This document shows positions 544 through 19,126 of a stretch of 64,000 nt of DNA, piece after piece. The first letter of the stretch is position 1. Every line of letters starts with the position of its first letter. The position numbers were made by a program, and so were the translations under genes. The DNA lies in contig JAOPTX010000042.1 in assembly GCA_051532055.1 (NCBI GenBank), positions 111,101 to 175,100 on the forward strand. Direction: 5' to 3'. Source of the DNA: Fibrobacterales bacterium. Its GTDB lineage: Bacteria; Fibrobacterota; Fibrobacteria; Fibrobacterales; JAOPTW01. The notes under the pieces were generated by a model. The model searched no databases and was not told the origin of the DNA. It worked only from the letters and a program-made list of their open reading frames with translations.

Positions 544-3500
544 GTGCCGTATAAAGCAGTTCTGTTATTATTTCTATTTTGTTCTATACTCAAGGCAGAC
601 CAGACTTGGTTACAAACTGATTGGTCCGGTGGCTCTGGTCAAAATGAGTGGATAGTAATAAATCAATACTTAAGTGATGACTCTCAGTTACATACTGATG
701 ATGTGGGTGAGCTCGGTATAACGTTTAGTGTTCAAAACGGTGATGGTTCAGATGGTAATGTCACTATTTCAACGGTCAATCAGATAGTTAATACTTATTC
801 TGCAATTTCATCAACGAACACAGCCGCAGCTCAAAAACAAGTTGTAGTTCAAGATGGATCTCTATTTAGTGTTGGTGACGAAGTACTTCTCATCCAAATG
901 CAACAATATACTAATGATAATTCGAGTACTGCGGGCACTTATGAATTTGCTCATATATCATCTATTAGTACTAACACCTTAACATTCGTAATTAATTTAT
1001 CCTATGCCTATTACTCGGGAAACTTTGATATGGCACAGGCTAACGCAGCTCAAGTTATCCGTGTCCCTAATTATAATAACCTCACGATAAGTACCGCTGC
1101 ATCCATTACGGGGAGCCCATGGAATGGTACCACTGGCGGAGTAGTTGCCTTTAGAGTTAAAGAGAATTTTATCGCTTCTGGTGCTACGGTCACGGCAGAT
1201 ACTCTCGGTTTTCGCGGTGGGGCGGGTGGGGCGGGGAATGAAGCAAAAGGCTGGGAGGGCGAAGGAATACTCGGGAAAGATATGGCTGAAGGTGATGGTG
1301 ATGGCTGTAACCCTTGTAATAGTTATCCCACTGGGATTAACAATGGTGGGTCTGGAGGGTTTGGGAGATCAATTTATGGTGGTGGAGGTGCCGGTGGTGG
1401 ACACGCGGTTGCAGGTCAAAATGGGGGAGCTAAATATATTGATCAACTCGCACGGGGAGGAATTGCTGTGGGGAATGCTGCGATGACCACTATATTTATG
1501 GGTGGTGGCGGCGGCGGCGGCGGTGACGACGACAATCAACATAATAACATGGTTGACCCGAGCAACGATAGATACTTTTATCATATGTATGGTGGTCGCG
1601 GTGGCGGCATCATCATGATATATGCAAAAACAATGACGGGTGGAACGTTAACAACCAAAGGACAATCCCGTCAAACTCCTTGGGTAAGTAACGGAGCCGC
1701 CGAAGGGAGTGGTGGTGCCGGAGGAAGTATAAGAATACAAGCTAAAGATATCAGTAGTGTTACTCTTGATGTTTCTGGTGGTGATGGAGAAAATGACTAT
1801 GAACAGATTACCGCTGGCTGGGGTGGTGACGGTTCAAATGGGCGAATGCTTTTGGAGTATAGTAGTAAAACGAGTATTGTTAATCAGACGGGAATCAATG
1901 GGGCAAACCAATCAATTAGTGAAGCTACCTTAGGTGCTTATGAATCAGCAGAGGTCGTATCATCCATTTTAGATATGCAATCACTACCAGGAACTCTGTT
2001 TGGACCCATGAGTGCAAACTGGACAGCAACACTTAATGGTGGAGTAGTTAAAGTATATCTACGCACGGCGTTAACTGAAGGAGCTATACCGGGTAAAGCA
2101 TGGACTCAAATTGAAAAGAATGTGATTGTTGATTACTCTGGTGACATTGATTATAATGATAGGTATGTACAGTATCGCGCACTATTACAAGTCGGTACAG
2201 AGTCACCCGTTCTGAATGATATCACAATTACCCTTGGTGATGTTGTTACGCCTCCTACTACACCTGATTCACTTTTTATCTATGGCGATTCGCTTTTTAC
2301 TCCAGAAGATGAGATATTAAGTAGTGATAGTATCGGCTGGAATACTCCAACAGGGTTTCCTGTTAACGCATTAACCTATGAATTTGAAATAGCTTCAGAT
2401 GCTTCTAATTGGGTAGGGACAAGTCTATACAGTGAAAATATTGGAGCTGATACTCAGATTGATTTAGATACTATGTCTATTTCTTTTGTTGAAAATAGTC
2501 GGTATTTCTGGAGAGTGAGGGCTGTGCACCCTGATGCCTCAATGTCTTCATGGACAGGTGACCTACAATCATTTTATATTAATAATGTGAACAGTGCCCC
2601 ACATTCTAATACCCTCCATGAACCAACAGGGTACGAAATATTAAAAAGTACCGATACAATCACCTTTAGAGCTCTTGACGTCGATTCAATCAGTAATACA
2701 CCCGACATTTTAACTTACACTATCGATCTCAGTCTTAATAAATCATTCACCCTTATTGCAAGTTCATATAGCACAACAGATACCTTTGCAGTTATGGGTT
2801 CATTTGGGGTGTTAGTAAACGATCAACTCTATTTTATGAGAGTGCGCGTACAAGATGACGGGGGAGAATCTGGACCGACAATCACCCTATCAGACAGTAT
2901 ACGTTACCTTTTTGAAGGAAACACCCCTCCTCCGGTACCCTCATTTACTGGTGTTTCAGAAGATGATATGATAATAGAAACAGACGTGATTCAATGGAGC
3001 ACTTCTATAGATCCCGATGCAAACCCAGTACTTTATACTATAGAGGGGAGAAGTGATGTTAACGCTGCCGCAGTCTATTACAGCACTGGTATTTCAGCGA
3101 CTTCAGCAACGATTGCTCAACTCATTACTGCTGATTCTTTGGGCGCAACAATTGCTACCTTTAATGATAAGAATCTCTCACTCCGGATTAAAGCAACCGA
3201 TAGTTACAATGAATCGTCAAACTGGTCTGGTTGGATGCGCCTCCATTTTAACGCAGTCAATGACACTCCCTCAGTAGCTAGTATTACCGCTCCAACAGAT
3301 AATCAATTTTTCAGACCTCCACAATCAATAACATGGAACTCTTCATTTCATGGTGATCAGCGTGAAGATTCATATTTTAGTCTTGAACTGGGTAATGCAT
3401 CTGATTTTAATGTTATTATTGAATCGGATACTCTCGCTGAATCCGTGCACGATAAACAACTATCGACGTTCACAAAACTCGATCAGCTCATTGCAAATCA

Positions 3501-6500
3501 AGAGTATTATCTTCGCCTCAAGTCATATGATGCCTCAGGAAATAGTTTTGGTTATTCTCAAGTTAAATCATTTACCTATCTCATCGATTCACTTTTTGCA
3601 CCGGCTACACTCTACAGCTCCCCAGGAATATCATTTGTATCAGGTAACGAGTTTAGTGCAGAAAGTAGTGTAGGGTGGAGTTATTCTGGTGTATATTCCT
3701 ATGGTTTTTTAACCTATGAACTTATCATTGATAATGATGCTTCTTTTGGATCTCCAGAAGTACGCGATACTCTCACTGATACAACTGCTGTATTTACAAG
3801 TCTCACAGGGAACGCCTCTCTCGTCGATAATCAATTTTATTATTGGATCGTTAAAGAAATTCATCCAGATGGTACAAGCTCTAACTATACCGACCCAACC
3901 TCATCATTTTTTTATAATCCTATTAATCAAGCACCAACATTACCAACGAATATATCACCCTTACCATTAAACAATTTAGAACTGTATGTCACCTCTGACT
4001 CACTCTTTAGGTTTTATTCAACTGACGCTGATTCCCTCGGTAATACACCCGACCTTTATAGCTATACTATTCAAGTTTCTACTGATTCTCTTTTTGCTCA
4101 AATCATTTCTACAATACCTGGTGTTTTAGAAGATAGTTATGTAATTGGAAGTGTCCCCGGTCTCCAAGATAGCACTGAATATTTTTGGCGGGTTTTTACG
4201 ACCGATAGTCATGGAGCGTCATCAGATACCGCAGGAACATTCTCTTTTACGTATCTCATGACAAACACCCCACCTTCAGTGGTTCAATTTATTACACTCC
4301 CTGATAGTACCATTGTTGACTCTACCACGTTATTTAAATGGAATCGCTCCTTTGACCCAGAAGGTTCATCAATCCGATATTTCGTGGAGTTTACTCAAGA
4401 CACTACCCGTTTTAGTTTTAATATAATATCCGAAGTGACTGATACTACATACACTTATAGTGAATTGATCACTTTTAATACCATTAAAAAAGTACTAACC
4501 ACAGACACCCTCGATAATGATGTTTATATAGATACAACAACGTCACTGAGTTTTGACGATCAAACCCTCTATCTACGTATTTATTCAATTGATCAATTTA
4601 ACATTAGATCTATAGCCTCTTCATGGACCACGCTCTTTATTGATAGTGAAAATGACACCCCTACTCAAATACAGTTAAAACAACCTCTTGATGACTCTAT
4701 AGATCTTTTTGAAACACAACTAATTACGTATACACAATCAACCGATCCTGATCGATTTGATACACTTTATTACGAAGTAGAGATTTCTAAAACCGTTGAC
4801 TTCTCTACTTTAATGGGGAGCGCTACAACGGCCAAAGGCGATACTGCAATTGGATTTACCGAGTTTACCTTGACTGAACAGTTCGCAAATGGCGACTACT
4901 ATTATGTACGGGTACGGGGACGAGACAATGCTGGGAATAGCGCGGGGTATACGAACCCTCGGCCATTTAAATATTCAGCTAATAATTCTCGGCCTACCAC
5001 TCCTGTAATCACTACACCTGCCGACACTGCAAACACATTTGGTCCTACTGGTCTTATTACATGGAGTACAGCGACCGACCCCGAAGGTGACTTGGTAACC
5101 TATGAGCTGGTAATTGTACCGAGTGATTCTTCCTTTCCTGCCATATTAGAGAACGGATTGAGTTTTGCAACAAGCATAACAAATACTACTTATACATTGT
5201 ATAAGAGCACACACTACGAACATCTTCAAAGCGGAACCCTTTATGCCGCCTACGTACGATCAGTTGATGCTTTTAATGCACCATCAAGTCCATCCGAACC
5301 ACGATACTTTTGGTATTTCTCAACAAAACCAGGAGCGGTTACCCTTCACTCACCTGTCGATTCTACAGAAGGGGATGGTACACTCAGACTCACGTGGAGT
5401 CGCGCTGTAGACACCGATGCAGGTGTAAACGACACAATACGGTATGATATCCTTCTTTCCCAATCTCCTAATTATTCAGACACAGCCTTAAGAGTTAGTG
5501 TAGTTGGAGATACTTCGGCTGCCCTTCAGGATTTACCAGGGATGAATGATTTAGTTGAAGATCGCTATTATTACTGGAAGGTCTTTGCTGTAGATCCTCA
5601 TGGTGAAGTGAGTGAATCAAGTCTTACCAAACTATTCTTTTATAATCTCGGTAATCAGAAACCTAATGTCCCTGATAGCCTTCGCTATTTAAAAAGTGAC
5701 TCCCTCTTTCTTTTTGATGAACTCTTTTGGTGGGCAACTGACCCTGACATTAGCGATAATGGCAAGCTTGTCTATGACCTACAAATTGATGATTCAGATG
5801 TATTTCAATCCCCAATACAGTTTAGCAATATACCACAAGAGTTTGTTGCGCTCAACTATAACGCAGAAACCTTACAACTTCAAAAAAACCACGAATACTT
5901 TTGGAAAGTTCGAGCTCGTGACCCAGCTGGGGAGACGTCGGCCTATACAGCCACACTAATGTCATTTGTTTATATGGGTTTTGATAGTACCATGTTTGAC
6001 ATTTCTACAATATATACTCCATCACGTAGTGTCTTTGTACATACGGATTCGCTCTTTTGGAAACCAGTTACTCATTTAAATAGTAAATATATTGTACGCC
6101 TCTATGATGGATCCACAGGAGGCCTTATCGGTGTTGACACCATATATGCCTCTGAACTAAGTACCTACCGTTATAATGACTCCAGCATGTATATCCCATT
6201 ACTGGCAGTATTGCCTGATTCTCTATATACAGCAGAGAAGTTCTTTAATTGGAGTGTTCAAGCAGCTTCAGATACTCATGACCCTACTTATGGAACAGTA
6301 GTTTCTCATTATTTTTATTTAGGCAAAAAGGAGAAGCTTCAAGATAACAATAGAACCAGTGCATGGATTCTCCCTAAAGATAGTGTCATTCTCTATTCAG
6401 CCGATTCGCTTCTTAACGTTTCCATTCCACAGCATTCATTTAAGGATACATTTGGTGTGGCTTTTGATAGCGTAGGCCTCTTTTTACAAGAACTCCTTCT

Positions 6501-7302
6501 CGATACGTCATCTCAATACACTACCGAAACTAATTATCTCATTGGAAAAATAAACCGAGCCAATCGACATCTTGCTGCAGATCGTGGAATTAAATATGTT
6601 GGTCAGAAAATATTTGAGATTCATGCGGTTGATTTGGTCTCTCAAAAAATAATTCAACCGGATAGTTCCATTAATCTGGTGTTATCAATGCAAGTATCGG
6701 AACAAGATACTAGTGGTGGACGGAGGCTACCAAGGGATTCTCTCTTTACTTATTCTGACACACTCTATGATGTCAATGAGACCTCTATATTTTTGCTCGA
6801 TGAGATAGAAGACCGTTGGGTGATGCAAGAGAGTGAGCTCATAAACAATACAACCCTTAATGATAGTACATCTATATTGGCAAAACGAGCAGAGGTGAAC
6901 CCCCAGTCAATCATTGCTACCACAACGAATCATTTTAGTGTGTATACAATATTAGCAGCTAAAGTGAGTCTCGAACCCTTTAGTGACTTTCTTATCTACC
7001 CATCACCAATCATTACCTCAGATGTCACTGAAGAAAACAGAAATGCCCGTATTAGTTTTCGTATCACACAACCCACTGATATTGCCATTCGGATTTTTTC
7101 TAGAACGGGTAAGCTCGTATGGAAGCAAGACTTATCGGAAGTAATACCAGAAGATGGTACTAAAAATGAAGTCATTTGGAACTGTACCAATCTTGATGAA
7201 TATCTAGTAGGGAATGGTTACTATATCGTAAAACTAAAAGCAACCATTAAAGCGACCGGTAAAAAATATATAGAGAAACAAATTATAGCGGTGGTAAAAT
7301 AA
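544..7302 (+). CDS. Giant secreted surface protein: signal peptide, Gly-rich head, about a dozen FN3/Ig-like repeats, ZU5-like domain (NHFS), FlgD-Ig/T9SS-like C-terminal domain
   Basis: N-terminal signal peptide; WLQTDWSGG start; GGxGG-rich region; repeated W...DP...Y...YYWRV.A.D modules; C-terminal FLIYPSP...IFSRTGKLVW...W...N...GNGYYIVK. Confidence 0.8.
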   Translation: MPYKAVLLLFLFCSILKADQTWLQTDWSGGSGQNEWIVINQYLSDDSQLHTDDVGELGITFSVQNGDGSDGNVTISTVNQIVNTYSAISSTNTAAAQKQVVVQDGSLFSVGDEVLLIQMQQYTNDNSSTAGTYEFAHISSISTNTLTFVINLSYAYYSGNFDMAQANAAQVIRVPNYNNLTISTAASITGSPWNGTTGGVVAFRVKENFIASGATVTADTLGFRGGAGGAGNEAKGWEGEGILGKDMAEGDGDGCNPCNSYPTGINNGGSGGFGRSIYGGGGAGGGHAVAGQNGGAKYIDQLARGGIAVGNAAMTTIFMGGGGGGGGDDDNQHNNMVDPSNDRYFYHMYGGRGGGIIMIYAKTMTGGTLTTKGQSRQTPWVSNGAAEGSGGAGGSIRIQAKDISSVTLDVSGGDGENDYEQITAGWGGDGSNGRMLLEYSSKTSIVNQTGINGANQSISEATLGAYESAEVVSSILDMQSLPGTLFGPMSANWTATLNGGVVKVYLRTALTEGAIPGKAWTQIEKNVIVDYSGDIDYNDRYVQYRALLQVGTESPVLNDITITLGDVVTPPTTPDSLFIYGDSLFTPEDEILSSDSIGWNTPTGFPVNALTYEFEIASDASNWVGTSLYSENIGADTQIDLDTMSISFVENSRYFWRVRAVHPDASMSSWTGDLQSFYINNVNSAPHSNTLHEPTGYEILKSTDTITFRALDVDSISNTPDILTYTIDLSLNKSFTLIASSYSTTDTFAVMGSFGVLVNDQLYFMRVRVQDDGGESGPTITLSDSIRYLFEGNTPPPVPSFTGVSEDDMIIETDVIQWSTSIDPDANPVLYTIEGRSDVNAAAVYYSTGISATSATIAQLITADSLGATIATFNDKNLSLRIKATDSYNESSNWSGWMRLHFNAVNDTPSVASITAPTDNQFFRPPQSITWNSSFHGDQREDSYFSLELGNASDFNVIIESDTLAESVHDKQLSTFTKLDQLIANQEYYLRLKSYDASGNSFGYSQVKSFTYLIDSLFAPATLYSSPGISFVSGNEFSAESSVGWSYSGVYSYGFLTYELIIDNDASFGSPEVRDTLTDTTAVFTSLTGNASLVDNQFYYWIVKEIHPDGTSSNYTDPTSSFFYNPINQAPTLPTNISPLPLNNLELYVTSDSLFRFYSTDADSLGNTPDLYSYTIQVSTDSLFAQIISTIPGVLEDSYVIGSVPGLQDSTEYFWRVFTTDSHGASSDTAGTFSFTYLMTNTPPSVVQFITLPDSTIVDSTTLFKWNRSFDPEGSSIRYFVEFTQDTTRFSFNIISEVTDTTYTYSELITFNTIKKVLTTDTLDNDVYIDTTTSLSFDDQTLYLRIYSIDQFNIRSIASSWTTLFIDSENDTPTQIQLKQPLDDSIDLFETQLITYTQSTDPDRFDTLYYEVEISKTVDFSTLMGSATTAKGDTAIGFTEFTLTEQFANGDYYYVRVRGRDNAGNSAGYTNPRPFKYSANNSRPTTPVITTPADTANTFGPTGLITWSTATDPEGDLVTYELVIVPSDSSFPAILENGLSFATSITNTTYTLYKSTHYEHLQSGTLYAAYVRSVDAFNAPSSPSEPRYFWYFSTKPGAVTLHSPVDSTEGDGTLRLTWSRAVDTDAGVNDTIRYDILLSQSPNYSDTALRVSVVGDTSAALQDLPGMNDLVEDRYYYWKVFAVDPHGEVSESSLTKLFFYNLGNQKPNVPDSLRYLKSDSLFLFDELFWWATDPDISDNGKLVYDLQIDDSDVFQSPIQFSNIPQEFVALNYNAETLQLQKNHEYFWKVRARDPAGETSAYTATLMSFVYMGFDSTMFDISTIYTPSRSVFVHTDSLFWKPVTHLNSKYIVRLYDGSTGGLIGVDTIYASELSTYRYNDSSMYIPLLAVLPDSLYTAEKFFNWSVQAASDTHDPTYGTVVSHYFYLGKKEKLQDNNRTSAWILPKDSVILYSADSLLNVSIPQHSFKDTFGVAFDSVGLFLQELLLDTSSQYTTETNYLIGKINRANRHLAADRGIKYVGQKIFEIHAVDLVSQKIIQPDSSINLVLSMQVSEQDTSGGRRLPRDSLFTYSDTLYDVNETSIFLLDEIEDRWVMQESELINNTTLNDSTSILAKRAEVNPQSIIATTTNHFSVYTILAAKVSLEPFSDFLIYPSPIITSDVTEENRNARISFRITQPTDIAIRIFSRTGKLVWKQDLSEVIPEDGTKNEVIWNCTNLDEYLVGNGYYIVKLKATIKATGKKYIEKQIIAVVK

Positions 7303-8954
7303 TGGTACGATTATACGCCATACTCCTATCTTATTTAGTTTCTATGTCGACAATTAAGGCCGCTAATCTAGAGCCATTTAATCCCATTAATCTCACGACA
7401 GGAAATCAAGATACTCTACTCTTCTTTTTTGAAGCACTGACCTGGGAGGGCAGTGACCCCGATTCATTAGATACACTATTATCCTATCGGATTCAAATTG
7501 ATGACGACAGTAATTTTGCATCACCAGTACTCCAACTGGATACTACTGCATCATCAGTTTTTATTAGTGATTTTAATAACTATTCACAAAAACTTACAAA
7601 TGAAACAACGTACTACTGGAGGGTTCGAGCTAAAGACTCCGACGGGCTGCTATCGGATTATTCCGTAGCCAGTCTGGGTTATAACTTTGTTAATGGCGTC
7701 AACATGCTTGACATCCCTTCAGTAGTTTCGTTTTCACATACAATTAAAGAGCCTACCGACTCTCTTTTTTGGCAATCAGCACTCTATTATGATGCAGAAT
7801 ATACTGTAGAACTCTTTAGAGATGATAGTTCGGTCATTCAAAGCAGAACATTAATTCCCTCAACCAATGATTCTTCTATGTTCATTGGTTCTAACATGTT
7901 TATATCTATTAGTCACCTTTTTGGTGATAGTACCATAGAACCTTTTACGAGTTATTTCTGGACTATACAAGCTTTTGCGAACAACTTGGGCTCATTATCG
8001 GGAATACGTTCTGAGAGGCAACATCTATTTATACACGATAGCACGAATCAGTTGATCACTGCAGCAACAACCCATGCGTGGTCTATTTCTCATAAAGATC
8101 AAGAGATTTTTTCAGCTGACTCACTCATGGTTATCACTATTCCTGACTCAGCATTTGGGGAGACTACTGTTACGGTACTCATCAGTGAACTTCCTGGTGA
8201 GAGTGTTACCGACAGTAGTTCTAGTACAGGAGCCCATAATAACATTGTGTCAGCTCAAAATAATCTTACCGCAGATCGGTTTAGACGTACACTGGGACAA
8301 AAAATTTATGCTATTGATGCTTTGAATAGCAGAACTATGAATCCAATAGCACCTCTCAAAGGTAAAGAAGTCATACTGTCCCAAGCCATTATCCTTAATG
8401 ACACTACATTAACCTCTAATACTCCCATTGAAAGTGCAACGATAGCACAGCTTGATACAACAAGAAATGAGTGGGCCGTTCAATCTTCATCATTGATTTC
8501 TATACAAAGCCAAGAATCTCTTGATTTTTTCAAGTCACACTCTGACCAGCAGTTAACGCATTACATGCAACACACCACCAATCACTTTAGCTATTATACC
8601 ATCCTGTTTCGAGGAGTGGATAGCGAGCCATTTTCCGATTTTTTAGTCTATCCATCACCTATTATTCTCAGTCATGGAACTGATGAAATAAAGAACGCTC
8701 ATATATCATATAGCCTGACAGCAGAGACCTCGATTTCCATAAATATATTCTCGAGAACCGGTAAATTAGTGTGGTCAAAAGACACCATTCATATCGCACC
8801 AACTGATGGCCTTAAAAGTGAAATAGTTTGGAATGGCACTAATAGTGAAGGTACTGTAGTAGGTAATGGTTATTATGTGGTAAAATTGGCAGCAAAAATT
8901 AAAGGTATCGACCGTTACTATAGGGCCAAACAATTAATAGCGGTGGTAAAATAG
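7302..8954 (+). CDS. Short paralogue: signal peptide, two FN3-like modules, ZU5-like domain (NHFS), FlgD-Ig/T9SS-like CTD
   Basis: Overlaps the upstream stop (TAATG); colinear with the last ~550 aa of the two giant proteins; same YPSP/SRTGKLVW/GNGYY/QLIAVVK C-terminus. Confidence 0.8.
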   Translation: MVRLYAILLSYLVSMSTIKAANLEPFNPINLTTGNQDTLLFFFEALTWEGSDPDSLDTLLSYRIQIDDDSNFASPVLQLDTTASSVFISDFNNYSQKLTNETTYYWRVRAKDSDGLLSDYSVASLGYNFVNGVNMLDIPSVVSFSHTIKEPTDSLFWQSALYYDAEYTVELFRDDSSVIQSRTLIPSTNDSSMFIGSNMFISISHLFGDSTIEPFTSYFWTIQAFANNLGSLSGIRSERQHLFIHDSTNQLITAATTHAWSISHKDQEIFSADSLMVITIPDSAFGETTVTVLISELPGESVTDSSSSTGAHNNIVSAQNNLTADRFRRTLGQKIYAIDALNSRTMNPIAPLKGKEVILSQAIILNDTTLTSNTPIESATIAQLDTTRNEWAVQSSSLISIQSQESLDFFKSHSDQQLTHYMQHTTNHFSYYTILFRGVDSEPFSDFLVYPSPIILSHGTDEIKNAHISYSLTAETSISINIFSRTGKLVWSKDTIHIAPTDGLKSEIVWNGTNSEGTVVGNGYYVVKLAAKIKGIDRYYRAKQLIAVVK

Positions 8955-8955
8955 T

Positions 8956-11900
8956 ATGAACCGAGTCTTTTCAACTTCTTGCTTAATGCGTAATCTATTC
9001 ATTGGATTATTCGTTGGCTTTTATGGACCGCTCACTGCAGCTAATACTCATTGGACTCAAACTGATTGGTCTGGTGGGTCTGGACAAAACATTTGGAGTA
9101 ATTCTACTCAGTATGGGTCTGATGATGGGTTGATAAAAACCTCTATTACCAATCAATTATCTATAGAGAATTCCATTAATACAGGAACGGGAACCATAGA
9201 TCTTATTGTTTCATTAGATAGTACTGTAATTAATGAATATAGCGCAGTCATTGGATCCCCTTCTGCAGGATCATTTACTATTGATGTGAGTAATGGATCC
9301 CTTTTTCAAAATGGAAGTGAAATTTTAATCCATCAGACACAACACGCCGATAGTGCAGGAAACTATGAGTTTCATACAGTAGTTTCTAAGGTGGGGAACA
9401 CCCTAAATCTAGATTCGGGTTTAATACATACCTATTATTCTGGAACAGATAATGTGACGGTTTCAAGTACTGCCCAAGTAGTTTCAGTGCCCCATTATAA
9501 CTCAGTAACAATTAATAATGGAGTCACCATGGAATCACGTGAATGGGATGGTGTCACTGGTGGTATTGTCATATTTCGTACTAAAGAGACTGTTACACTT
9601 AATGGCTATATCGATGTAGATGGCCAAGGATTTCGAGGCGGAAATTGTGGGACCTGTGGAGATGCCGCGTGGGGGACTCAAGGTGAAGGTCATACGGGTA
9701 TTGGTGGAAATAGTGTAGTCGCAAACGGTAGTGGTGGCGGTGGTGGATATGGACCATCGGGCATTGGTGGGGAGCCAGGTGCTGGGGGAGGGCATGCTTT
9801 TGCGGGGAGCTCTCCCGCAAGTTATGGAGCGCCGAGTCAGCCCATAGGTGGCGTTGCTGTTGGGGATCCGCAACTCTCCAAAATACTTTTTGGAGGAGGT
9901 GCTGGTGCAGGTGGAGATAATGATAATGGAACTCCATTTCCACAATATGTAAATGGGGGAGGAATTGTGATACTCTTTGCTAAAACAATCGTTGATGCAA
10001 GAATAACATCTAAAGGTGAAGATGGTGTTTTTTCATCTGGAGCAGGAGGAGTGACAGGAGGGGGCGCTGGGGGCGCCATATTATTATCAGCCAAAACTAT
10101 TACAACCCAATCAGTAGATGCTTCTGGTGGTGCTGCAACACCGGGTTCATCACCAGATATTGGGGGGGCGGGGAGTGTTGGAAGAATCAGAATTGATGTT
10201 GAAACCTGCACTGGTTGTACAACTACTCCTACACCCGTGGAAAATATTATTGCGGTAGCAGACTCGGCGGTATTACTCTCTTCTATTTATGCTTTTAACA
10301 ATTCTGACTATTATGGTCCCTATAGAATTAACTGGGAATTTACTGACAATGGGGGGAGTGTTGATGTTTGGATTCGGACTGCCTCAACTACAGGGTCAAT
10401 ACCGGGGGAACCATGGGTACCGGTTATCAAAAATGCCCGAACTGATTTTAATACTGGTTTTTCAAATTCCGATGCCTATGTTCAATACAAAGTAACCCTT
10501 ACTAAAGGCTCAGCAGATAGTCCTATTTTTGAGGAAATAAATATTGAACTCGGAGAAAAACAGACCCCTTTAACTGCTCCAGTAAGACTTTATCTTGGAA
10601 ATGATGTTCTGTTTACCTCTGAAGATGTGCGTTCCCCCGGAGACAACCTATCATGGAGTCAAGATACAACGTTTCCAAGTAACTTTCTTTCCTATGAATT
10701 ATTCATATCTCCTAATGCAAACTATTCTACGATACTGTATCAAGGTAATGTCGGGGGAGACACCCTAGTGAGTCTCGACACCCTGACACTATCTTCGGCC
10801 CTGCAGGATAATACTCCATATTATTGGGCAGTACGTTCTAAAGATGTCGATAATGTAGTCTCAACCTATACTTCACTGGGTAATAGATTTATTTACAATT
10901 CAATAAATCAACCTCCTCCCATACCCGCTATTTACACCAATAGTGGCATTGCGCTCACAGCTACTCAACCTCTGTATTTTAAAAGTCAGGACCCTGACTC
11001 CTTAGGTAACCAACCTGACCAATTAACCTATCGTATTGAACTGGATACAGATCCAGCATTTGGTTCAATTGACGTAACCCATACAACACAAGACACGACT
11101 CCACTTACAGGTTCGATCGCAGGCCTTGTCAATGCCACAAATTACTTTTGGCGTGTTTGGACTGAAGACGACAGTAGTGCAGTGTCTTCTAAAACTACGG
11201 GAACTCACTGGTTTACTTATATACATAGTAATAGCCCACCTTCCGCTATTTCATTGACACTTTTTATTGACGACACAGAATTTTTCGGTGATTCACTCAT
11301 TCGTTGGAATAAGTCCATCGATCCAGAAGGTAATCCCATTACCTATATAATTGAAGGGAGACACAACACTTTTGGGGACACACTTCTATATGCTACTATT
11401 CTTTCAGATACCGCACTTACCTTAAATCAATTGATTGATAGTAATGATATAACAACAGCAGTATCAGAATTTAATGATAGGGATTTTGTTATTCGCGTTA
11501 AAGCCCGCGATTCCTATCAACTAGAGTCCATAGTTTCGGATTGGAAACCTGTCCACTTTAATCAAATTAATGATGTTCCTTCTGCCGTTACAATTACAAC
11601 ACCCTTGGATTCATTAAAACTACGGCCACCAGAAAAAATACGCTATAGTGCATCGTTTCATTCAGATCAAAGAGAGGATATTTTTTATGAAGTAGAGTTG
11701 GGGGCTGACCCTCATTTCATTGCTTCGCTTTCAAAAGATACTGTCCCCGAAGACTCTACTTCTGTACCTTTACAAAACCTCGGTGGTCACTCAACGCTCA
11801 CTATTAACAATTTTTATTATCTTCGGGTCGCAGCATTTGATGCAAACGGAAATAAAGCGTCGAGCTCACCTGTGCGAACATTTCAATATTCAATTGATTC

Positions 11901-14900
11901 TATAACGCCGCCATTACCACTCTCGCTCGGCATGGACTCTCTCTTTGCTTCTGGTAATGAACGAATGAAATCAGATACTCTTGCATGGAGTTGGTCTCGG
12001 GTGTATTCCTATGGCTATCTCGAATACACTCTTCAAATCAGTAGTGACTCACTGTTTACTACACCTCTTATTTCTCTTACTAATTATAGTGATACCTCTG
12101 TGATTATCCAAAATTTACCGAACGTTACTGCTCTCACTGAAAATAAACGTTATTTCTGGAGAGTAAAAGAAATTATTCCTGCAGGTGCTTATTCTGAGTA
12201 TACTGATGTCAGTAATTTCTTTGTACTCAATACTACCAACGATAAACCGCTCACCATATCCTCTTTTTCACCTTCAGTATCAGCCGGTGAACCACCTTTT
12301 TTAACGTCAGACTCTTTACTGAAGTTTATAACAGTTGATCCTGACACGTTAGGTATAACCCCTGACAAACTATCGTATACCATTCAAATTTCACAGAACT
12401 CAGGGTTTACTCCTGTACTCACCACCATCTCAGGTGTTACTGAAAATGAATATCTCTTAGGAAGTATTCCTGAACTCCAAGATACACAAATATACTATTG
12501 GAGAGTTTTTGCTACAGATAATCATGGACTTCGTTCTGACACTACAATTGGTACCCACTATTTTGAGTACTCATTGACTAATGCCGCTCCCAGTAGTGTG
12601 TTTTTTAAAAACCTTCCAGATAGTGCAGAACGCGGAGGTTCAGATCTCCTAGAATGGAATAAATCAATTGACCCTGATGCGCATACGGTGTCCTATGTCA
12701 TTGAGGGGGTTAGTGACACTATCGTTTTTACCCGTGAACTCTACACAATAGTTCCTGACACCTCTCTCACCCTCGATTCTGTATTATCACATAACACTCT
12801 TTCTGTAACTGATTATGATGATAAAATATACTTTGTAAGAATTTACAGTAGAGATCAGTACAATGCTCGCTCCGTACCCTCAGCATGGCAAACTCTTTTT
12901 ATAAACTTAGAAAATGATATACCCACTGCTGTTTCTCTCAAAAAACCTCTTGATGACTCATCTGCAATTGCTGAATCTGAAGGAATTGTGTTTAGCAAGT
13001 CCAAGCATTCAGATCACTTAGAGAGTTTCATCTATATCCTTGAAATTGCCGAAGATACAAGCTTTACTCAACTAATTTCAGTTGATACCCTTTCTTCGAC
13101 TGAAGACTCTCTTGGTTTTTATGATATGAATGGCTCACTATCTCTCGAAAAAGATATTTTCTACCACGTACGAGTTCGCCCCATTGACCGAGCAGGAAAT
13201 GCCCCAGAATGGTCAGCCCCTAAGAGTTTTCAATATATCACCTCAAATGGACGGCCCGGAATTCCCGAACTTATTTCTCCCATTGACACCGTAAAATATT
13301 TTTTACCGCGAGACACCCTATACTGGGGAGGTGTAACAGATGGTGATGGTGATGCTTTTTGGTACGAAGTGTATATCGTGAATATTGATGAACAACCAAC
13401 AAATAAAACTCAAAAAAGTATTGCCTTTAAAACGGGTGTTGATACCACACAGCTCGCTCTCAATGCTCTCGTTAACTACCGTAACCTACAAAGCCATACC
13501 AAATATCGCTGGATTGTTCAGGCTAAAGACATCTACAATGCACCTTCAGGCTATGCAACTGAAGGTATCTTTACCTTTAGATCTACTCGACCCGATGATG
13601 CAGTTATCATAGCCCCAAAGGATTCAGCGGTCGCTAACTTGAGTAATCCCTTTTATTGGCATCCTGCCCACGACGTTGATTTAGGTGTAGATGATGAACT
13701 TCTCTATGAGCTCCTCATTTCGAAATCAGAATCCTTTGATACTAAGGATATTGTTTTACAAGACACAATAATTTCTGATACGCTTGTTGCACTCACCGAC
13801 CTCCCCTCATTTTCAAATGTTCCTGATGACCAATGGTACTATTGGAAGGTATATACCATTGATCGCCATGGACTGAGAAGTGAAGGTGGTATTGCAGAGC
13901 CCTTTTTCTTTAATTTGGGTAATCAAGCACCTACTGCGCCTGTTGATTTAACCATGGGGGACGGAGATTCTCTTTTCTATGCATTTGAAGAACTAAAATG
14001 GACAGGTAGTGACCCTGATCCTCAAGATATTCCCTATCTCGTCTATGATATACAGATTGATGATAGCCATACTTTTGCTTCACCCGACTTTATTCGCTAC
14101 GGGGTAACAGGGGAAACCAATGTTGCACTCAATACCTTTAGTGGGCATCTCAGAATGATACCAGGGCACCGTTATTATTGGCGTGTTATCGCACAAGATT
14201 CCGAAGGGCTCCTCTCACCATTTTCTGATGATAGCACTGCAAGCTTTGTATTTATGCCTTCAGATAGTTCATTGTTTGAGATACCAAATGTTCGTACAAT
14301 CAATAGTTCGGTGCTCACTTCTTTTGATACTCTAGAATGGCATCAACCACTTTTTGATGATGTTTCATACCGTGCACGTATATATTCCCTCAGCGGCGAT
14401 ACACTCAATACGATTGTTTTTAAGGGAGGCGTGGATTCTATTTCTAAAATTGCGCTATCTTCATTACTCCCAGACACCCTCTATCAGGATGAGCACTACT
14501 ATTTTTGGGATATTATTGCCTTTAGCAATACAACACAACCAGAATACGGCCCACTGAAAGAAAATCTTTATTTTTATACAGGAAATCGCTTTAAATCACA
14601 GAATATTTCTGCTACTCGAGCATGGCTCACAGGGCCAGATTCAACTCTGATTCAAAGCGCTGATTCTCTTTTTACAATAGTAATACCGAATAATGCATTT
14701 ACTGACACCGTTGGTATTGTTATGCAAACAGTGCCCAAAGATACATCCGCTATTATTGATAGTACGACCAAGGCATTAGTATCACTTGTTACCTATGCCA
14801 ACAAGGCACTCGCTTCAAATCGTAAACTCTTTCCTTTAGGACAAAAAGTCTTTAGTGTCGAAGCGCATGATCTGGCAACTGATACCGTTGTACAACCCGA

Positions 14901-15552
14901 TAGCACCAGTCAATTGTTATTACATCTCGCCTACGAAAACCGAGATTCTACGGATAGCAGTGTCGTTCAATTTAGTGATTCACTTTTTAGTATCTATAAT
15001 ACTGCTGTATTTTGGCTTGATGAGACTAAAAAAAGGTGGGTTGAGCAACAATCAGTAGTACAACCAGATCTAACGATTGAACAACCAACAATACTTCCTA
15101 AGAAGAGTTTAACTTCAACATCTTCGAATAAAGAAAATGAACGGGCGCCTCACAACCAATTTAATGCTCTAACCTATTCAAACCACTTTTCAGTCTATAC
15201 TATTTTTGCAGTTAAGCGATCTATAGAACCATTTGGTGATTTTCTCATATATCCTTCCCCCATAATAACATCAAGTGAAAACCCCGATAAACAAAAGGCC
15301 CGAATAAGTTTCTCTATTACCGATAAAACATCGATAAACCTTCGAATTTACTCCAGAACTGGCAAATTAGTCTGGAAATATGATAGAATAGAAGAGCCAG
15401 TAGATGGGTTAAAGAATGAAATCATATGGGATTGCAAAAATTTGGATGACTACCTTGTTGGGAATGGATACTACATCGTTAAGATACGTGCTAAATCGGA
15501 AGCAAATAATAAGGTCTACATACAAAAGCAGTTAATTGCAGTGATAAAATAA
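8956..15552 (+). CDS. Giant secreted surface protein, full-length paralogue of 544..7302
   Basis: WTQTDWSGGSGQ N-terminus, Gly-rich head, FN3-like repeats colinear with 544..7302 (shared SFHxDQRED, VYSYGxLxY), NHFSVYT and the same CTD. Confidence 0.8.
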   Translation: MNRVFSTSCLMRNLFIGLFVGFYGPLTAANTHWTQTDWSGGSGQNIWSNSTQYGSDDGLIKTSITNQLSIENSINTGTGTIDLIVSLDSTVINEYSAVIGSPSAGSFTIDVSNGSLFQNGSEILIHQTQHADSAGNYEFHTVVSKVGNTLNLDSGLIHTYYSGTDNVTVSSTAQVVSVPHYNSVTINNGVTMESREWDGVTGGIVIFRTKETVTLNGYIDVDGQGFRGGNCGTCGDAAWGTQGEGHTGIGGNSVVANGSGGGGGYGPSGIGGEPGAGGGHAFAGSSPASYGAPSQPIGGVAVGDPQLSKILFGGGAGAGGDNDNGTPFPQYVNGGGIVILFAKTIVDARITSKGEDGVFSSGAGGVTGGGAGGAILLSAKTITTQSVDASGGAATPGSSPDIGGAGSVGRIRIDVETCTGCTTTPTPVENIIAVADSAVLLSSIYAFNNSDYYGPYRINWEFTDNGGSVDVWIRTASTTGSIPGEPWVPVIKNARTDFNTGFSNSDAYVQYKVTLTKGSADSPIFEEINIELGEKQTPLTAPVRLYLGNDVLFTSEDVRSPGDNLSWSQDTTFPSNFLSYELFISPNANYSTILYQGNVGGDTLVSLDTLTLSSALQDNTPYYWAVRSKDVDNVVSTYTSLGNRFIYNSINQPPPIPAIYTNSGIALTATQPLYFKSQDPDSLGNQPDQLTYRIELDTDPAFGSIDVTHTTQDTTPLTGSIAGLVNATNYFWRVWTEDDSSAVSSKTTGTHWFTYIHSNSPPSAISLTLFIDDTEFFGDSLIRWNKSIDPEGNPITYIIEGRHNTFGDTLLYATILSDTALTLNQLIDSNDITTAVSEFNDRDFVIRVKARDSYQLESIVSDWKPVHFNQINDVPSAVTITTPLDSLKLRPPEKIRYSASFHSDQREDIFYEVELGADPHFIASLSKDTVPEDSTSVPLQNLGGHSTLTINNFYYLRVAAFDANGNKASSSPVRTFQYSIDSITPPLPLSLGMDSLFASGNERMKSDTLAWSWSRVYSYGYLEYTLQISSDSLFTTPLISLTNYSDTSVIIQNLPNVTALTENKRYFWRVKEIIPAGAYSEYTDVSNFFVLNTTNDKPLTISSFSPSVSAGEPPFLTSDSLLKFITVDPDTLGITPDKLSYTIQISQNSGFTPVLTTISGVTENEYLLGSIPELQDTQIYYWRVFATDNHGLRSDTTIGTHYFEYSLTNAAPSSVFFKNLPDSAERGGSDLLEWNKSIDPDAHTVSYVIEGVSDTIVFTRELYTIVPDTSLTLDSVLSHNTLSVTDYDDKIYFVRIYSRDQYNARSVPSAWQTLFINLENDIPTAVSLKKPLDDSSAIAESEGIVFSKSKHSDHLESFIYILEIAEDTSFTQLISVDTLSSTEDSLGFYDMNGSLSLEKDIFYHVRVRPIDRAGNAPEWSAPKSFQYITSNGRPGIPELISPIDTVKYFLPRDTLYWGGVTDGDGDAFWYEVYIVNIDEQPTNKTQKSIAFKTGVDTTQLALNALVNYRNLQSHTKYRWIVQAKDIYNAPSGYATEGIFTFRSTRPDDAVIIAPKDSAVANLSNPFYWHPAHDVDLGVDDELLYELLISKSESFDTKDIVLQDTIISDTLVALTDLPSFSNVPDDQWYYWKVYTIDRHGLRSEGGIAEPFFFNLGNQAPTAPVDLTMGDGDSLFYAFEELKWTGSDPDPQDIPYLVYDIQIDDSHTFASPDFIRYGVTGETNVALNTFSGHLRMIPGHRYYWRVIAQDSEGLLSPFSDDSTASFVFMPSDSSLFEIPNVRTINSSVLTSFDTLEWHQPLFDDVSYRARIYSLSGDTLNTIVFKGGVDSISKIALSSLLPDTLYQDEHYYFWDIIAFSNTTQPEYGPLKENLYFYTGNRFKSQNISATRAWLTGPDSTLIQSADSLFTIVIPNNAFTDTVGIVMQTVPKDTSAIIDSTTKALVSLVTYANKALASNRKLFPLGQKVFSVEAHDLATDTVVQPDSTSQLLLHLAYENRDSTDSSVVQFSDSLFSIYNTAVFWLDETKKRWVEQQSVVQPDLTIEQPTILPKKSLTSTSSNKENERAPHNQFNALTYSNHFSVYTIFAVKRSIEPFGDFLIYPSPIITSSENPDKQKARISFSITDKTSINLRIYSRTGKLVWKYDRIEEPVDGLKNEIIWDCKNLDDYLVGNGYYIVKIRAKSEANNKVYIQKQLIAVIK

Positions 15553-15566
15553 GAGATAGGTAAACT

Positions 15567-17861
15567 ATGCATACTCATAGAGCAAGAGCACTTTTCACAC
15601 TTCTCATAAGTGTTGGAATACTTTATTCAGCAGGTGATCCTGGTGATTACACATTCGAACTAGCTCCTGACGCTGCATCCCAGGGACGTGGCGGTGGTAG
15701 TGCTGCCGAAATTAATGCTGAAGCACTCTATCACAATCCCGCAGGTCTCAGCTTTAACATTTATAACAGTGTAACCATTGGACGTCAAGTACGTGAGTCA
15801 TTTGATCTTACAACATTCTCCTATATACATCCTTTTACCAATGCTGGAGTGGTGGGTATTGCTTTCTATAATGATGCACTCTCTTCGGTGCATAATCAAT
15901 ATTCTGAATTTGGTGAACATATTGGTTCTGATCAGGGCGGAGAAAGGGAGGTAGTCATTGGGTATGGTTATAACTTTTTAGATATGATTGGGGTAGGCTT
16001 AAATTTTAAAATGGCTCATCAAGAGGTAGCTTCGTATACCGACATGGGGTTTGGCTTTGACTTGGGTTTGTTGTATAATTATCAACGAACGTTTATGGCG
16101 GGCGTGAGTCTCGTAAATTTATTTGGTCCTGAAATGCAGCTGGTCAATGTCAGTGAATCATATGCAACAGTCTTAAAGACTGCTGTTGCAAGTCACCTTT
16201 TAAACGAAATATTAGTAATGAGTGCGGATGTCGATATTGTAAATATTCTTGGGGGAGAGGATCCACTGGGTAATGAACTGAAACGCTCGAGTAGGTATCG
16301 CCTTGGAGTCGCTTTTTCTCCTATTAAATATGGTACAATACGTACAGGAGTGAATGGGGTTAATGTGGTTCGAGGTATTACTGATGATGTATGGTACTCT
16401 GTTGGAGCAGGTCTTACCGTCAATAACTTTTCGGTTGATTATGCTTTTTCAACCTCGTTACTTTCAGACGATGCAGAAATAGGCATGGGTTCCAATCACT
16501 ATGTGAGCCTCAATTACCTTATAGGAAAACCCTATGAAAAAGAAAAAGAGGATCTCATCCAACGAGTAAAGGACCTTGAATCGCAAATTAGTCTCAATAA
16601 TGCCCGTCAATCATTTATTGACAAAGAGTATAAAGATGCCCTGAATCAAATTCAAGAATATCTAGTAGTATATCCAATGGACAGTAGTGCACTCGAGTTT
16701 AAATCAGAAATCAGAGGAGAGATCAATCGAGAACGTGTAGTTATTCTCGAGATAGAGTTTATTGAAACGATAAATAACAACCAGTTAATTAAAGCCAAAG
16801 CGATTATTGATGACATAGTACTTCTGAGCCCTCAGTATGAAAATTTGCCAGAATTACAAAAATCATTGGTCACCGCAGAACAAGTTGAAACATTATTTAC
16901 ATCAATTAAAAACTTAACTCCTGACAGTGAACCAGTAAAAATTATAGAAGGATTAGTTCGCATCTATGAATTAAATCCTGACTTTGCACAAGGAGCTTCT
17001 CTTGAGAAAACAGCGAGACCGTATTACAATCAATTAAAAGCCAAAGAACTATATACAACTGCAAGTAGCCTCTTTTACGAAAAGAAAGATGTACAAGCAG
17101 CTCATCAAAAGTTAAAAGAGGCATTAATTCTCGACAAAGATAATAGTGAAGCCAAAAAGCTGTATGAGGAACTTACGAGTAAATTAAGAGCCCAGTTGCT
17201 CAAACAGGCGGCATCTGGAGATGAAGATGCGGTGCTAGAACAAATGGTTGCTCTCGATTTAGATCAACAAATTATTGAAGCCAACAATCTCTTTGATGAT
17301 AAAGATTTTGAAAGTGCTGAAGTAGTGCTTAATAAAATTCTTCGTAAAAACAGTGCTCATCCTGGTGCAACGGTACTTTTGGAAAAGGTTAAAAAAGCAT
17401 CCTATACCCAAACAGCAAAAGCAAGCTACCAAGAAGCGCTCTTAGCCTTTAATAGTGGTGACATGAAAAAAGCATTTGCACTGGTATCCAAAACAATTGA
17501 GATCGATCCAATTCACACAAAAGCAATTGAACTTAAAGAAAATATGATTGCAACCACCCTAACTGATGCAAGAAATGCACTGGAATCCTTTAGAAAAAGT
17601 CAAGTAAATACAGACCTTAAACTCGCACGAGATCTCCTTGATGCGCTTATTGAAGGTGGCACTAGTACAGAAGAAATTACAGCCCTGCAACTCGGTGTTT
17701 CTACTGAAGAACGCGTTCTTTCTGTTCTTATACAAATAGAAAATGGTGAATATAAAAACGCCGAAAAAGAACTCAATGATATTTTACTCAGCAACCCTGA
17801 TAGTAAATCGGCAAAAAGTGCATTTGAAATGCTGAATGAACTTAAGGAGATTTTACAATGA
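15567..17861 (+). CDS. PorV/PorQ-family (FadL-like) outer-membrane beta-barrel fused to a C-terminal TPR-like helical region
   Basis: Signal peptide; DAASQGRGG...ALYHNPAGL motif of PorV/PorQ/FadL-like barrels; amphipathic strands (GFGFDLGLLY, VGAGL, VDYAF, YVSLNY); then ~430 aa of TPR-like helices. Confidence 0.7.
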   Translation: MHTHRARALFTLLISVGILYSAGDPGDYTFELAPDAASQGRGGGSAAEINAEALYHNPAGLSFNIYNSVTIGRQVRESFDLTTFSYIHPFTNAGVVGIAFYNDALSSVHNQYSEFGEHIGSDQGGEREVVIGYGYNFLDMIGVGLNFKMAHQEVASYTDMGFGFDLGLLYNYQRTFMAGVSLVNLFGPEMQLVNVSESYATVLKTAVASHLLNEILVMSADVDIVNILGGEDPLGNELKRSSRYRLGVAFSPIKYGTIRTGVNGVNVVRGITDDVWYSVGAGLTVNNFSVDYAFSTSLLSDDAEIGMGSNHYVSLNYLIGKPYEKEKEDLIQRVKDLESQISLNNARQSFIDKEYKDALNQIQEYLVVYPMDSSALEFKSEIRGEINRERVVILEIEFIETINNNQLIKAKAIIDDIVLLSPQYENLPELQKSLVTAEQVETLFTSIKNLTPDSEPVKIIEGLVRIYELNPDFAQGASLEKTARPYYNQLKAKELYTTASSLFYEKKDVQAAHQKLKEALILDKDNSEAKKLYEELTSKLRAQLLKQAASGDEDAVLEQMVALDLDQQIIEANNLFDDKDFESAEVVLNKILRKNSAHPGATVLLEKVKKASYTQTAKASYQEALLAFNSGDMKKAFALVSKTIEIDPIHTKAIELKENMIATTLTDARNALESFRKSQVNTDLKLARDLLDALIEGGTSTEEITALQLGVSTEERVLSVLIQIENGEYKNAEKELNDILLSNPDSKSAKSAFEMLNELKEILQ

Positions 17862-19126
17862 TCAAGTTACTCTCTATACTCATATGCGTGTGTTTACTCG
17901 TAGGTACAAGCCCTGCGCAAGACCAACAAAATCTAGAACAACTCTATACGAGAAAAGCCGTTAAAGCTTTTGTCTCCAAAGACTTTAACGCCTCTATAGA
18001 GAATGTTAAACAAGTTCTCAGAATTAACCCTAACAATAACCAAGCAAAAAAATTATTGGCTAAAGGGTATTACTTCCAGTCCAAACAACTCTTTGCTGCT
18101 AAAGAGTATTCATTGTGTGACGCAATGCTTGATGAGCTTTTTGTAATCAGTCCAAAACACCAGTTGGGCCTTTCACTACGAGCCAAAGTTAAGCCCCTAT
18201 TGATAGTTCAGCCTACAATGCAAGCGACACAAGAGCAAAGGGGCAGGTCACCTCAACAGATACAACAAATACCCAGTCAAATTATAGTTAAAACTGATGA
18301 TGGGGGTAAAAGTGAAAAGATGATCTCTGCTTTTTTAGCACAATCAGATATGCAACGAGAAATTCAAGCACGTAAAGACTCCCTTTCGCGTCTTCAAAAT
18401 ATTGAACTCATAAACCTTATGAAAGATAGAGATGCTGAAAGTTCAACGAAGTTCAATAAAACCTTCATTTGGGTCGCTATAATCATTATAGGAACTATTT
18501 TCATCATTATCGCGGTCGTGTTTTTACTTGCAAAAATGTTCATTAAAACATCAGAATTACAATCAGCGCAACAATATGAAGTATTACAAAATTTATTATC
18601 TCAAGGTCCAGTAATGAATGAGTCCACCCTCAAACTTACTGCTACTTCTGGTAGTACCGAAGCAGACCTTGATAATGATGATGATCTAAAACGTGCAAAT
18701 GCTGTTGAGGCCATAGCAGAGGATCTCGCTGGGTCCGAATCAGTCAGTGATGAACATAAAGAAAAAATTGAAAAAGTAAGACTTCTCCTAAGTGACAGCA
18801 ATAATAGGGTTAGGGCAAATGCGGCAAAAGTTATTTATGCCATTGATAGTGAAGCTTCACTAAATTGTCTCAAAGAAATGGTCTTTTCTACAAGTAAACG
18901 TCAAAGTGCCTCAGGAATTTGGGCTCTTGGTGAAATCCACTCCAAAGAAACACTGAGTATTATACTGGATAAAGTAGCTGAGAATGATGATGATGAAATT
19001 ATCACACATAATTTACTTAATGCACTAAAAAAGGTCGAGAGCGATGCAGGAGAAGAACTCGATGAAGACGACCGACTTACGATAGTTAAAACATTAGAAG
19101 TGTTGCAGAGTAAAGAGAATGGGTAA
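17858..19126 (+). CDS. Bitopic membrane protein: exported TPR domain, single TM helix, cytoplasmic HEAT repeats
   Basis: Signal peptide; TPR (VLRINPNNNQAKKLL); hydrophobic FIWVAIIIIGTIFIIIAVVFLLA; HEAT repeats (DSNNRVRANAAKVI, SGIWALGEI); ATGA overlap with upstream gene. Confidence 0.7.
   Translation: MIKLLSILICVCLLVGTSPAQDQQNLEQLYTRKAVKAFVSKDFNASIENVKQVLRINPNNNQAKKLLAKGYYFQSKQLFAAKEYSLCDAMLDELFVISPKHQLGLSLRAKVKPLLIVQPTMQATQEQRGRSPQQIQQIPSQIIVKTDDGGKSEKMISAFLAQSDMQREIQARKDSLSRLQNIELINLMKDRDAESSTKFNKTFIWVAIIIIGTIFIIIAVVFLLAKMFIKTSELQSAQQYEVLQNLLSQGPVMNESTLKLTATSGSTEADLDNDDDLKRANAVEAIAEDLAGSESVSDEHKEKIEKVRLLLSDSNNRVRANAAKVIYAIDSEASLNCLKEMVFSTSKRQSASGIWALGEIHSKETLSIILDKVAENDDDEIITHNLLNALKKVESDAGEELDEDDRLTIVKTLEVLQSKENG

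Follow-up and report, generated by a model that had tools for sequence, protein, structure and literature searches.

The window analyzed here comprises 64,000 nucleotides of contig JAOPTX010000042.1 from a Fibrobacterales genome (positions 111,101 to 175,100 of the forward strand). It opens with a tight operon on the + strand, in which genes overlap or lie no more than 14 nt apart, and whose first three members encode large paralogous cargo proteins, here called A, B and C. By analogy with known systems, A, B and C are probably secreted, repeat-rich surface proteins held by a breakable non-covalent joint. Paralogue A (544..7302, 2252 amino acids) has a signal-peptide-like N-terminus, a head resembling the N-terminal domain of AgmC (AgmC_N), Ig/FN3-type repeats, a ZU5-like domain and a C-terminal sorting/anchor domain (CTD); paralogue C (8956..15552, 2198 amino acids) has the same architecture. 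Paralogue B (7302..8954, 550 amino acids), whose start overlaps the A stop by 1 nt, is a short version of the other two. The hydrophobic N-termini were judged signal-peptide-like by eye, the many Ig/FN3-type repeats of A and C were found by Pfam scan, and the C-terminal ~320 residues of the three proteins are 39-48% identical. The putative ZU5/GAIN-like domain lies at 6358..6957 in A, 8064..8612 in B (residues 4-186 of the structural model described below) and 14617..15213 in C, and the CTD follows at 6973..7299, 8622..8951 (model residues 190-299) and 15226..15549, respectively, all on the + strand.

The initial annotation had drawn attention to a motif, NHFS(V/Y)YTI, shared by the three proteins 10-15 residues ahead of the CTD, where it was said to close a domain that opens with SADSL and IP..(A/S)F.(D/E)T and carries a conserved Trp. 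All of these features are present as described. HFS occurs once per protein, with the His at residue 2130 in A, 428 in B and 2077 in C (codons starting at nt 6931, 8583 and 15184; motif at 6931..6939, 8583..8591 and 15184..15192), and always in the NHFS(V/Y)YTI context; in A the final strand reads SVYTILA. SADSL, with IP..(A/S)F.(D/E)T after it, starts at nt 6397, 8112 and 14656. The Trp (W391 in B) lies ~37 residues before the motif in B and farther upstream in A and C, and is invariant in all three paralogues, in all seven members of the family delineated below and in 34 of 34 rows of the merged alignment used for modeling. Eleven residues separate the Ser from the modeled start of the CTD, 7 of them in a beta-strand, and the tail beyond HFS is 120, 120 and 119 residues long in A, B and C. 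When HFS followed by 10-35 residues and [FLIV][YF]P[NS]P was used as a search pattern against 9698 stop-to-stop frames of at least 80 amino acids from the whole 5.17-Mb genome, only A, B and C matched; the association of HFS with the CTD is thus not a matter of chance. A hidden Markov model (HMM) of the A, B and C CTDs found in the genome only these three proteins and one weak match.

The domain itself proved to be rare. Scans with Pfam and NCBIfam assigned no family to the ~190 residues preceding the CTD and no autoproteolytic family anywhere on A, B or C. A phmmer search with the B domain against 1.84 billion representative sequences returned only B, A, a 3130-residue metagenome protein (P0002) with SHFSVYTL and a CTD of the window type, and a repeat protein (P0004) that we read as a spurious low-complexity match. 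Word-indexed searches added only C and a second protein of 3130 residues (P0006), which is probably the same protein as P0002. There was no match among the 60 relatives searched, which included members of the same genus, and of the stretches found in pattern scans of metagenome (225) and genome (64) contigs tblastn confirmed none. Unnamed clusters scored 0.90-0.91 in the ESM Atlas, where a ZU5 cluster appeared no higher than rank 23 (0.87); we treat this as a lead only. A profile search of all 296 genomes available for the phylum, finally, detected three additional homologues: L036 (E = 1e-54), with THFSIYTL, L037 (E = 6e-13; contig G132:C33) and L038 (E = 1e-7), with DHFSVYTV. The conservation of HFS in homologues, on which the initial annotation had made its interpretation depend, held up in six of the seven family members (A, B, C, P0002, L036 and L038), at 18-33% identity.

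ZU5 domains that are recognized by the Pfam model (PF00791; gathering score 21 bits, which the window domains do not reach) were found above cut-off in 25 of the 296 genomes. We examined 28 of their 32 sites; the four not used are L017, which has an in-frame stop, L029, which is partial and contains a TGA, and two more. The motif at these loci is HFT in 25 cases and HFS, HFA (L028) and TFS in one each, and the three residues of NHF vary little or not at all. In 27 of the 28, a tail of 102-120 residues runs to the stop codon and aligns with the window CTD, so that the succession of ZU5 domain, HF[ST], ~12 residues and CTD recurs in this phylum. In five of the genomes with Pfam ZU5 domains, two ZU5 matches lie ~3-4 kb apart on one contig and on the same strand; judging from this spacing, they are likely to be tandem cargo genes like the three in the window.

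The 28-row profile derived from these loci matches the ZO-1 and ankyrin ZU5 structures (E = 3e-5) and therefore represents genuine ZU5 domains. In the databases it identified 36 proteins (E<=1e-5), with matches named as Fibrobacteria, Fibrobacteres or Chitinivibrionales. The site is H-[FL]-[ST] in 31 of these proteins, [STR]-F-S, a variant of the FIIND type, in 4 and lost in 1; for five of them the motif was placed by eye in the full sequence. The CTD HMM recognized a CTD in only 5 of the 36 proteins and none in the other 31, which indicates that HFS belongs to the ZU5 domain and not to the CTD. One group among the ZU5 proteins (P0011-P0019, P0022-P0025, P0030-P0032 and locus L026 in G176) consists of proteins of ~520-650 residues with an N-terminal ZU5 domain ending in [DEKNT]HFSKY, then ~390 unassigned residues and no CTD. 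Several of them have, as judged by eye, a lipoprotein-like Cys after a hydrophobic leader; in such proteins cleavage would free the C-terminal part from the lipid anchor. Another protein, P0020 (898 residues), has about six tandem ZU5-like repeats, each closing with H-[FL]-[TSR].

Profile-to-profile comparison points to a relationship of the window family with these ZU5 domains. With four rows in the family alignment, hhalign gave a probability of 20% (E = 1.1e-3) against the 28-row ZU5 profile; with all seven rows the probability rose to 64% (E = 6.4e-5, score 35.5 over 67 columns), with the Trp and NHF[ST] aligned. Control scores were well below this, at 11.8 for the reversed alignment and 22.3 for the best of 30 column shuffles. 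Under permissive settings the IP..A strand, the GQK/GPDG region, the Trp strand and NHF[ST] were all colinear, and MAFFT gave the same register. Homology of the window domain to ZU5 is therefore likely, and the family is likely to be a branch of the ZU5/GAIN superfamily, new here, that is invisible to Pfam. Since the Pfam model misses this branch, modules of the kind are probably under-counted.

The structure of B residues 252-550 was predicted with AlphaFold2 (AF2) from a merged alignment of 34 rows, which gave a mean predicted local distance difference test score (pLDDT) of 87.2 and a predicted template modeling score (pTM) of 0.70. In this model HFS (residues 177-179) occupies a four-residue turn between strands 169-175 and 180-186, a block with a pLDDT of 96. 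The domain also has a helical insertion of ~40 residues and a second insertion of ~25-30 residues before the last hairpin. The model was compared with 48,161 chains using VIA-align, a method independent of Foldseek, for which the stated background is Z 7-8, so that values of ~10 are above background. All listed matches covering most of model residues 1-189 were to ZU5, FIIND or GAIN domains (Z 9.3-10.7), save two axonemal chains that we leave unplaced (9fqr_Hn, Z 9.5; 8glv_AE, Z 9.1). They include ankyrin ZU5A-ZU5B (3ud1_A, Z 10.7, root-mean-square deviation (rmsd) 3.3, 138 residues aligned), a ZU5 chain (3kbt_D, Z 10.5, second search), ZU5-ANK (3f59_A, Z 10.3, 126 of 149 residues aligned), ankyrin-B (6m3q_E, Z 10.1), BAI3 GAIN (4dlo_A, Z 10.1, second search; 4dlo_B, Z 9.3), CD97 GAIN (9mqr_A, Z 9.6) and CARD8 FIIND (7jkq_B, Z 9.4). 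The ZU5 and GAIN_B matches lie within 1 Z of each other and provide no ranking between the two. Two GH2 chains, spanning residues 74/76-299 at an rmsd of 7-8, reach partially into the domain, and the remaining listed rows match the CTD. Foldseek likewise returned UNC5b (3g5b, E = 5.9e-4) and the FIIND-containing NLRP1 (7crw_A, E = 7.7e-4), in a list for the two-domain model that was dominated by Ig-like CTD matches.

Thus the modeled domain is a beta-sandwich that can be superposed on ZU5 and GAIN domains, with H-x-[ST] in the turn that leads into the last strand, the place at which ZU5, FIIND, GAIN and the microbial GAIN-like (MAIN) domains cleave. Its fold is very probably ZU5/GAIN-like. The initial annotation had proposed a ZU5-like fold and had named ZU5, Nup98 and GAIN as the structures to compare. 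The ZU5 part of this is supported by the hhalign result, the structural matches and the ZU5 modules of the phylum, with the Pfam ZU5 model remaining silent; ZU5, FIIND and GAIN were all matched, and Nup98 was neither among the 50 VIA-align matches listed nor detected by Pfam on A, B or C.

The CTD resembles those of type IX secretion system (T9SS) components. The only PDB sequence matched by the C-terminal 299 residues of B was the PorU CTD (phmmer, E = 0.0026), and in VIA-align comparisons the B CTD matched the CTDs of PorU (Z 12.7-12.9, 22% identity), PorZ (Z 10.6) and mirolase (Z 9.9); like these solved CTDs, it is modeled as a C-terminal Ig-like beta-sandwich. A T9SS core appears to be encoded in the genome, judging from a SprA above its cut-off (534+139 bits, or 680 with neighbors), a PorU-like gene below its cut-off (345.9 bits against 420) and ten PorV_fam matches, two of them above cut-off. 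Elsewhere in the genome (G000:C3, C15 and C38) there are large CTD proteins in frames of 2129, 1786 and 1107 residues. They share a pre-CTD region of ~230 residues (..GWNQV.NPY.F..) that is unrelated to the ZU5-like domain, and their CTDs are also PorU-like.

Directly downstream of C lies a gene (15567..17861, + strand, 764 residues) for a putative PorV/PorQ-family barrel (residues ~31-298) with a C-terminal TPR extension. It is followed on the same strand by a gene for a 422-residue protein (17858..19126) and by a DnaJ paralogue (19119..20474, 451 residues), which scores 248.6 bits where the cut-off is 377.2, closes the cassette and is conserved in that place. A PorV/PorQ-family gene stands directly downstream of the cargo in 10 of 10 neighborhoods (E = 5e-16 to 1e-32). 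Three of these belong to the family homologues; the other seven, each from a different one of the 25 ZU5-positive genomes, lie behind Pfam-ZU5 cargo genes and were chosen for tandem pairs or top scores, so that they are not a random sample. The window barrel matches the PorQ model at 37.3 bits, and its counterparts in the homologous operons score higher than it does with the PorV_fam model NF033709 (114.1 bits for L075, 81.1 for L074 and 68.2 for L076). The complete order of cargo, barrel-TPR protein (760-782 residues), 422-451-residue protein and DnaJ paralogue (436-588 residues) is found in 4 of 4 operons, from different families of the phylum. The counterparts of the 422-residue protein have 441-451 residues, and two of the three match TPR/HEAT-type models. 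In 2 of the 4 operons (L075 and L076) a STAS anti-sigma-antagonist domain is fused to the DnaJ paralogue. A PorV-family gene also adjoins a 1438-residue CTD protein elsewhere in the same genome (G000:C10:53796-55549), which has the ZU5-like landmarks LTLPDSLF, W and ASLGYSIFT and no HFS.

These observations suggest the following mechanism. A, B and C would be exported by the T9SS of this genome and would end in a module of two parts, a divergent ZU5/GAIN (MAIN) autoproteolytic beta-sandwich and an Ig-like CTD most like those of PorU and PorZ, which are retained. After folding of the ZU5-like domain, the His in N-H-F-S would activate the Ser, and an N-O acyl shift would lead to a break of the Phe-Ser bond. 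The strand that now starts the C-terminal piece, S(V/Y)YTI.., would stay hydrogen-bonded within the sandwich, so that the ectodomain is kept non-covalently on a fragment of ~13.5 kDa made up of this strand and the CTD. The CTD would in turn be held by the PorV/PorQ-family barrel encoded next to it. This would amount to an anchor that does not depend on the sortase and has a built-in breakpoint, from which the ectodomain could be released, for example under load. We regard this as the best explanation of the data, with a probability of roughly 0.6. Cleavage at F|S with attachment through the strand is, by analogy, the probable outcome for all three proteins; the chances that the CTD is retained on the neighboring barrel appear to us evenly balanced.

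As to the ectodomain, the glycine-rich head of A (residues 66-449, 739..1890) resembles the N-terminal domain of AgmC, a Myxococcus adventurous-gliding protein (NF047640, E = 1.4e-42, 146 bits), as does that of C (residues 77-423, 9184..10224; E = 3.6e-27, 95 bits). Both scores are below the model's cut-off of 275 bits. Because of this likeness the heads hint at a role of the ectodomain in adhesion or motility.

A number of observations weigh against the proposed mechanism. The Pfam ZU5 model gave no match on A, B or C at E<=1, and a threshold of E<=10 still yielded none at their sites in the genome or on L036-L038, the latter in a search where the positive control L006 scored 39.4 bits; the family profile had 0 matches at E<=10 among PDB sequences. 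With the HMM built from the phylum ZU5 domains, the seven domains of the family reach only 2.4-10.4 bits, which leaves homology likely rather than proved from sequence alone, and the hhalign probability falls short of decisive. With the 4-row family alignment AF2 gave a pLDDT below 50 for the domain and was confident only of the CTD; of the 34 rows in the merged alignment 27 are Pfam-ZU5 proteins, so the modeled fold is partly inherited and depends on the hypothesis. The curated type A and type B CTD models of Pfam and NCBIfam all score A, B and C below cut-off (CHU_C 22.1, FlgD_ig 21.3 and Por_Secre_tail 15.5 bits, against 27), and the window barrel reaches only 52.7 bits (E = 4.7e-14) with NF033709, against a cut-off of 90. 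The PorU-like protein could strip off the CTD as sortases normally do. Among eukaryotic ZU5 domains, many are non-cleaving. Finally, L037 has TSFGIFTI in place of NHFSVYTI, with both His and Ser gone.

Several of these points would fit a ZU5-like fold that is non-catalytic, with HFS playing a structural part as a turn and the domain serving as spacer or adaptor; the PorU-like sortase would then cut off the CTD, as happens to T9SS cargo ordinarily. The genome has the sortase candidate and SprA that this requires, the best sequence and structure matches of the phylum ZU5 domains are the non-cleaving ones of ankyrin and ZO-1, and the SFG of L037 and HFA of L028 show that the fold tolerates loss of the motif. 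However, H-F-[ST] is among the best-conserved positions: six of the seven family members retain it, as do 26 of the 28 loci and 31 of the 36 database proteins. It also lies in the turn equivalent to the proven MAIN cleavage site. Moreover, L037 has neither His nor Ser, and this concerted loss is what would be expected of residues acting as a pair; we predict that L037 is a non-cleaving variant and a natural negative control. We consider a non-catalytic domain unlikely, if the most serious of the alternatives.

A poorer account holds that the domain is unrelated to ZU5 and GAIN, being some other beta-sandwich whose likeness to them comes from the merged alignment and a short shared strand motif. 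The silence of the Pfam model and of the PDB sequence search, the failure of the 4-row AF2 model and an hhalign match confined to 67 columns would all be understandable on these terms. They do not explain why the reversed control and each of the 30 shuffles fall short of the hhalign score, why four landmarks align in order, why the module order and downstream barrel are common to both groups, or why L037 and L038 bridge them, with ...DTN..DG...L.IF.LNE...W aligning with the ZU5 sequence ...D.D.DQDG...L.IVFWDG..W. An unrelated fold thus seems to us quite improbable. HFS might also belong to an extended CTD signal or a sortase recognition site, as its position 11 residues ahead of the CTD and the start of the phmmer PorU alignment at its F might suggest. 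This is the least probable reading of all and can be dismissed, because the motif closes ZU5 domains after which the CTD HMM finds no CTD (31 of 36 database proteins, such as the lipoprotein-like P0011-P0019), and because the model places HFS and the strand after it in the N-terminal sandwich, with the ankyrin ZU5 and BAI3 GAIN alignments reaching residues 186-188.

The non-covalent anchor proposed here might have a further function. The conservation of gene order in four of four operons across families of the phylum would allow the cassette to be a trans-envelope mechanosensor of a diderm, comparable to adhesion GPCRs, in which load extracts the strand, sheds the ectodomain and exposes a tethered peptide, and the barrel's TPR extension (~430 residues, presumed periplasmic), the TPR/HEAT-type protein and the DnaJ paralogue relay the signal inward. 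This is a speculative reading and we think it improbable.

T9SS cargo is thought either to be released or to be fixed covalently to lipopolysaccharide by the PorU sortase, and type B cargo to be held by PorP-like barrels. If the proposed mechanism is correct, it would be a third T9SS solution, in which anchoring is non-covalent, sortase-independent and breakable, and it would extend the MAIN principle, described for Gram-positive walls, to a diderm outer membrane. Paralogue B, with 550 residues, is a small construct on which this can be tested directly.

The closest known system is that of the MAIN domains, for example of Bacillus subtilis YfkN, as described in the main text of a preprint by Brogan and Rudner (bioRxiv 10.64898/2026.05.12.724683, May 2026). 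There, the F|S bond of HFS is cut in vitro and in vivo and the fragments stay together; S-to-A substitution abolishes cleavage and S-to-T restores it. The principle of a self-cleaving anchor is therefore already known. The idea in the initial annotation is in essence this principle, and as regards fold and precedent its interpretation for the most part holds up. MAIN proteins usually have a signal peptide, adhesion or enzyme domains, the MAIN domain and a surface anchor, in that order, and release by shear has been proposed. The window cargo has the same order, from a signal-peptide-like start through adhesion-type repeats and the ZU5-like domain to a C-terminal CTD, and shares with them the large adhesion-type ectodomain and a beta-sandwich with HFS in the turn between its last two strands. 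The anchors differ: in the MAIN proteins, mostly from Bacillota, they are sortase motifs, wall-binding domains or SLH domains, whereas here the putative anchor is a T9SS-type CTD with its own barrel, in a diderm. The discussion of the preprint casts MAIN proteins as a Gram-positive counterpart of autotransporters; its main text makes no mention of T9SS, type IX, PorV, ZU5 or Fibrobacter, and its supplementary tables may list such architectures.

ZU5, GPS and Nup98 domains were united by Zhang et al. (2012, PMC3482391), who also describe bacterial ZU5 autopeptidases (PF00791). Members from the same phylum as the window end in NHF[TS] and carry a homologous CTD, whereas the window domain is missed by the Pfam model and has two insertions. 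The toxin ZU5 domains treated in that article are N-terminal and linked to TcdB/TcaC export, in contrast to a domain that precedes a C-terminal CTD. Literature searches pairing ZU5 with type IX secretion gave unrelated mentions only, and pairing ZU5 with Fibrobacter gave only this article. The eukaryotic ZU5 and FIIND domains (PIDD1, NLRP1, CARD8) and the GAIN domains of adhesion GPCRs share the modeled fold class; they have an H/S-F-S or H-L-T site before the last strand, which keeps the fragments together. They function, however, in cytosolic death-fold or seven-transmembrane contexts and no sequence-level match between them and the window domain was found in the Pfam and PDB searches.

On the secretion side, the CTD is structurally closest to those of the PorU-PorV and PorZ-PorQ pairs of the Porphyromonas gingivalis T9SS attachment complex, which are uncleaved and anchor on the PorV or PorQ barrel. 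Here the partner of the barrel would be a cargo adhesin and not a component of the machine, and the barrel has the TPR extension. The type B CTD cargo with PorP/SprF-like barrels (for example SprB/SprF; cited in PMC10947112) is similar in that the cargo has its own barrel for surface anchorage, encoded by the gene next downstream, but the barrel is PorP there and PorV/PorQ here, the CTD type differs, and no autoproteolytic module is reported for it. As judged from these comparisons, what appears to be new in the window is the Pfam-invisible superfamily branch, its fusion to a PorU/PorZ-like T9SS CTD and its linkage to a PorV/PorQ-family barrel; together, the ZU5-like joint, CTD and barrel plausibly form a non-covalent, breakable outer-membrane anchor in a diderm bacterium.

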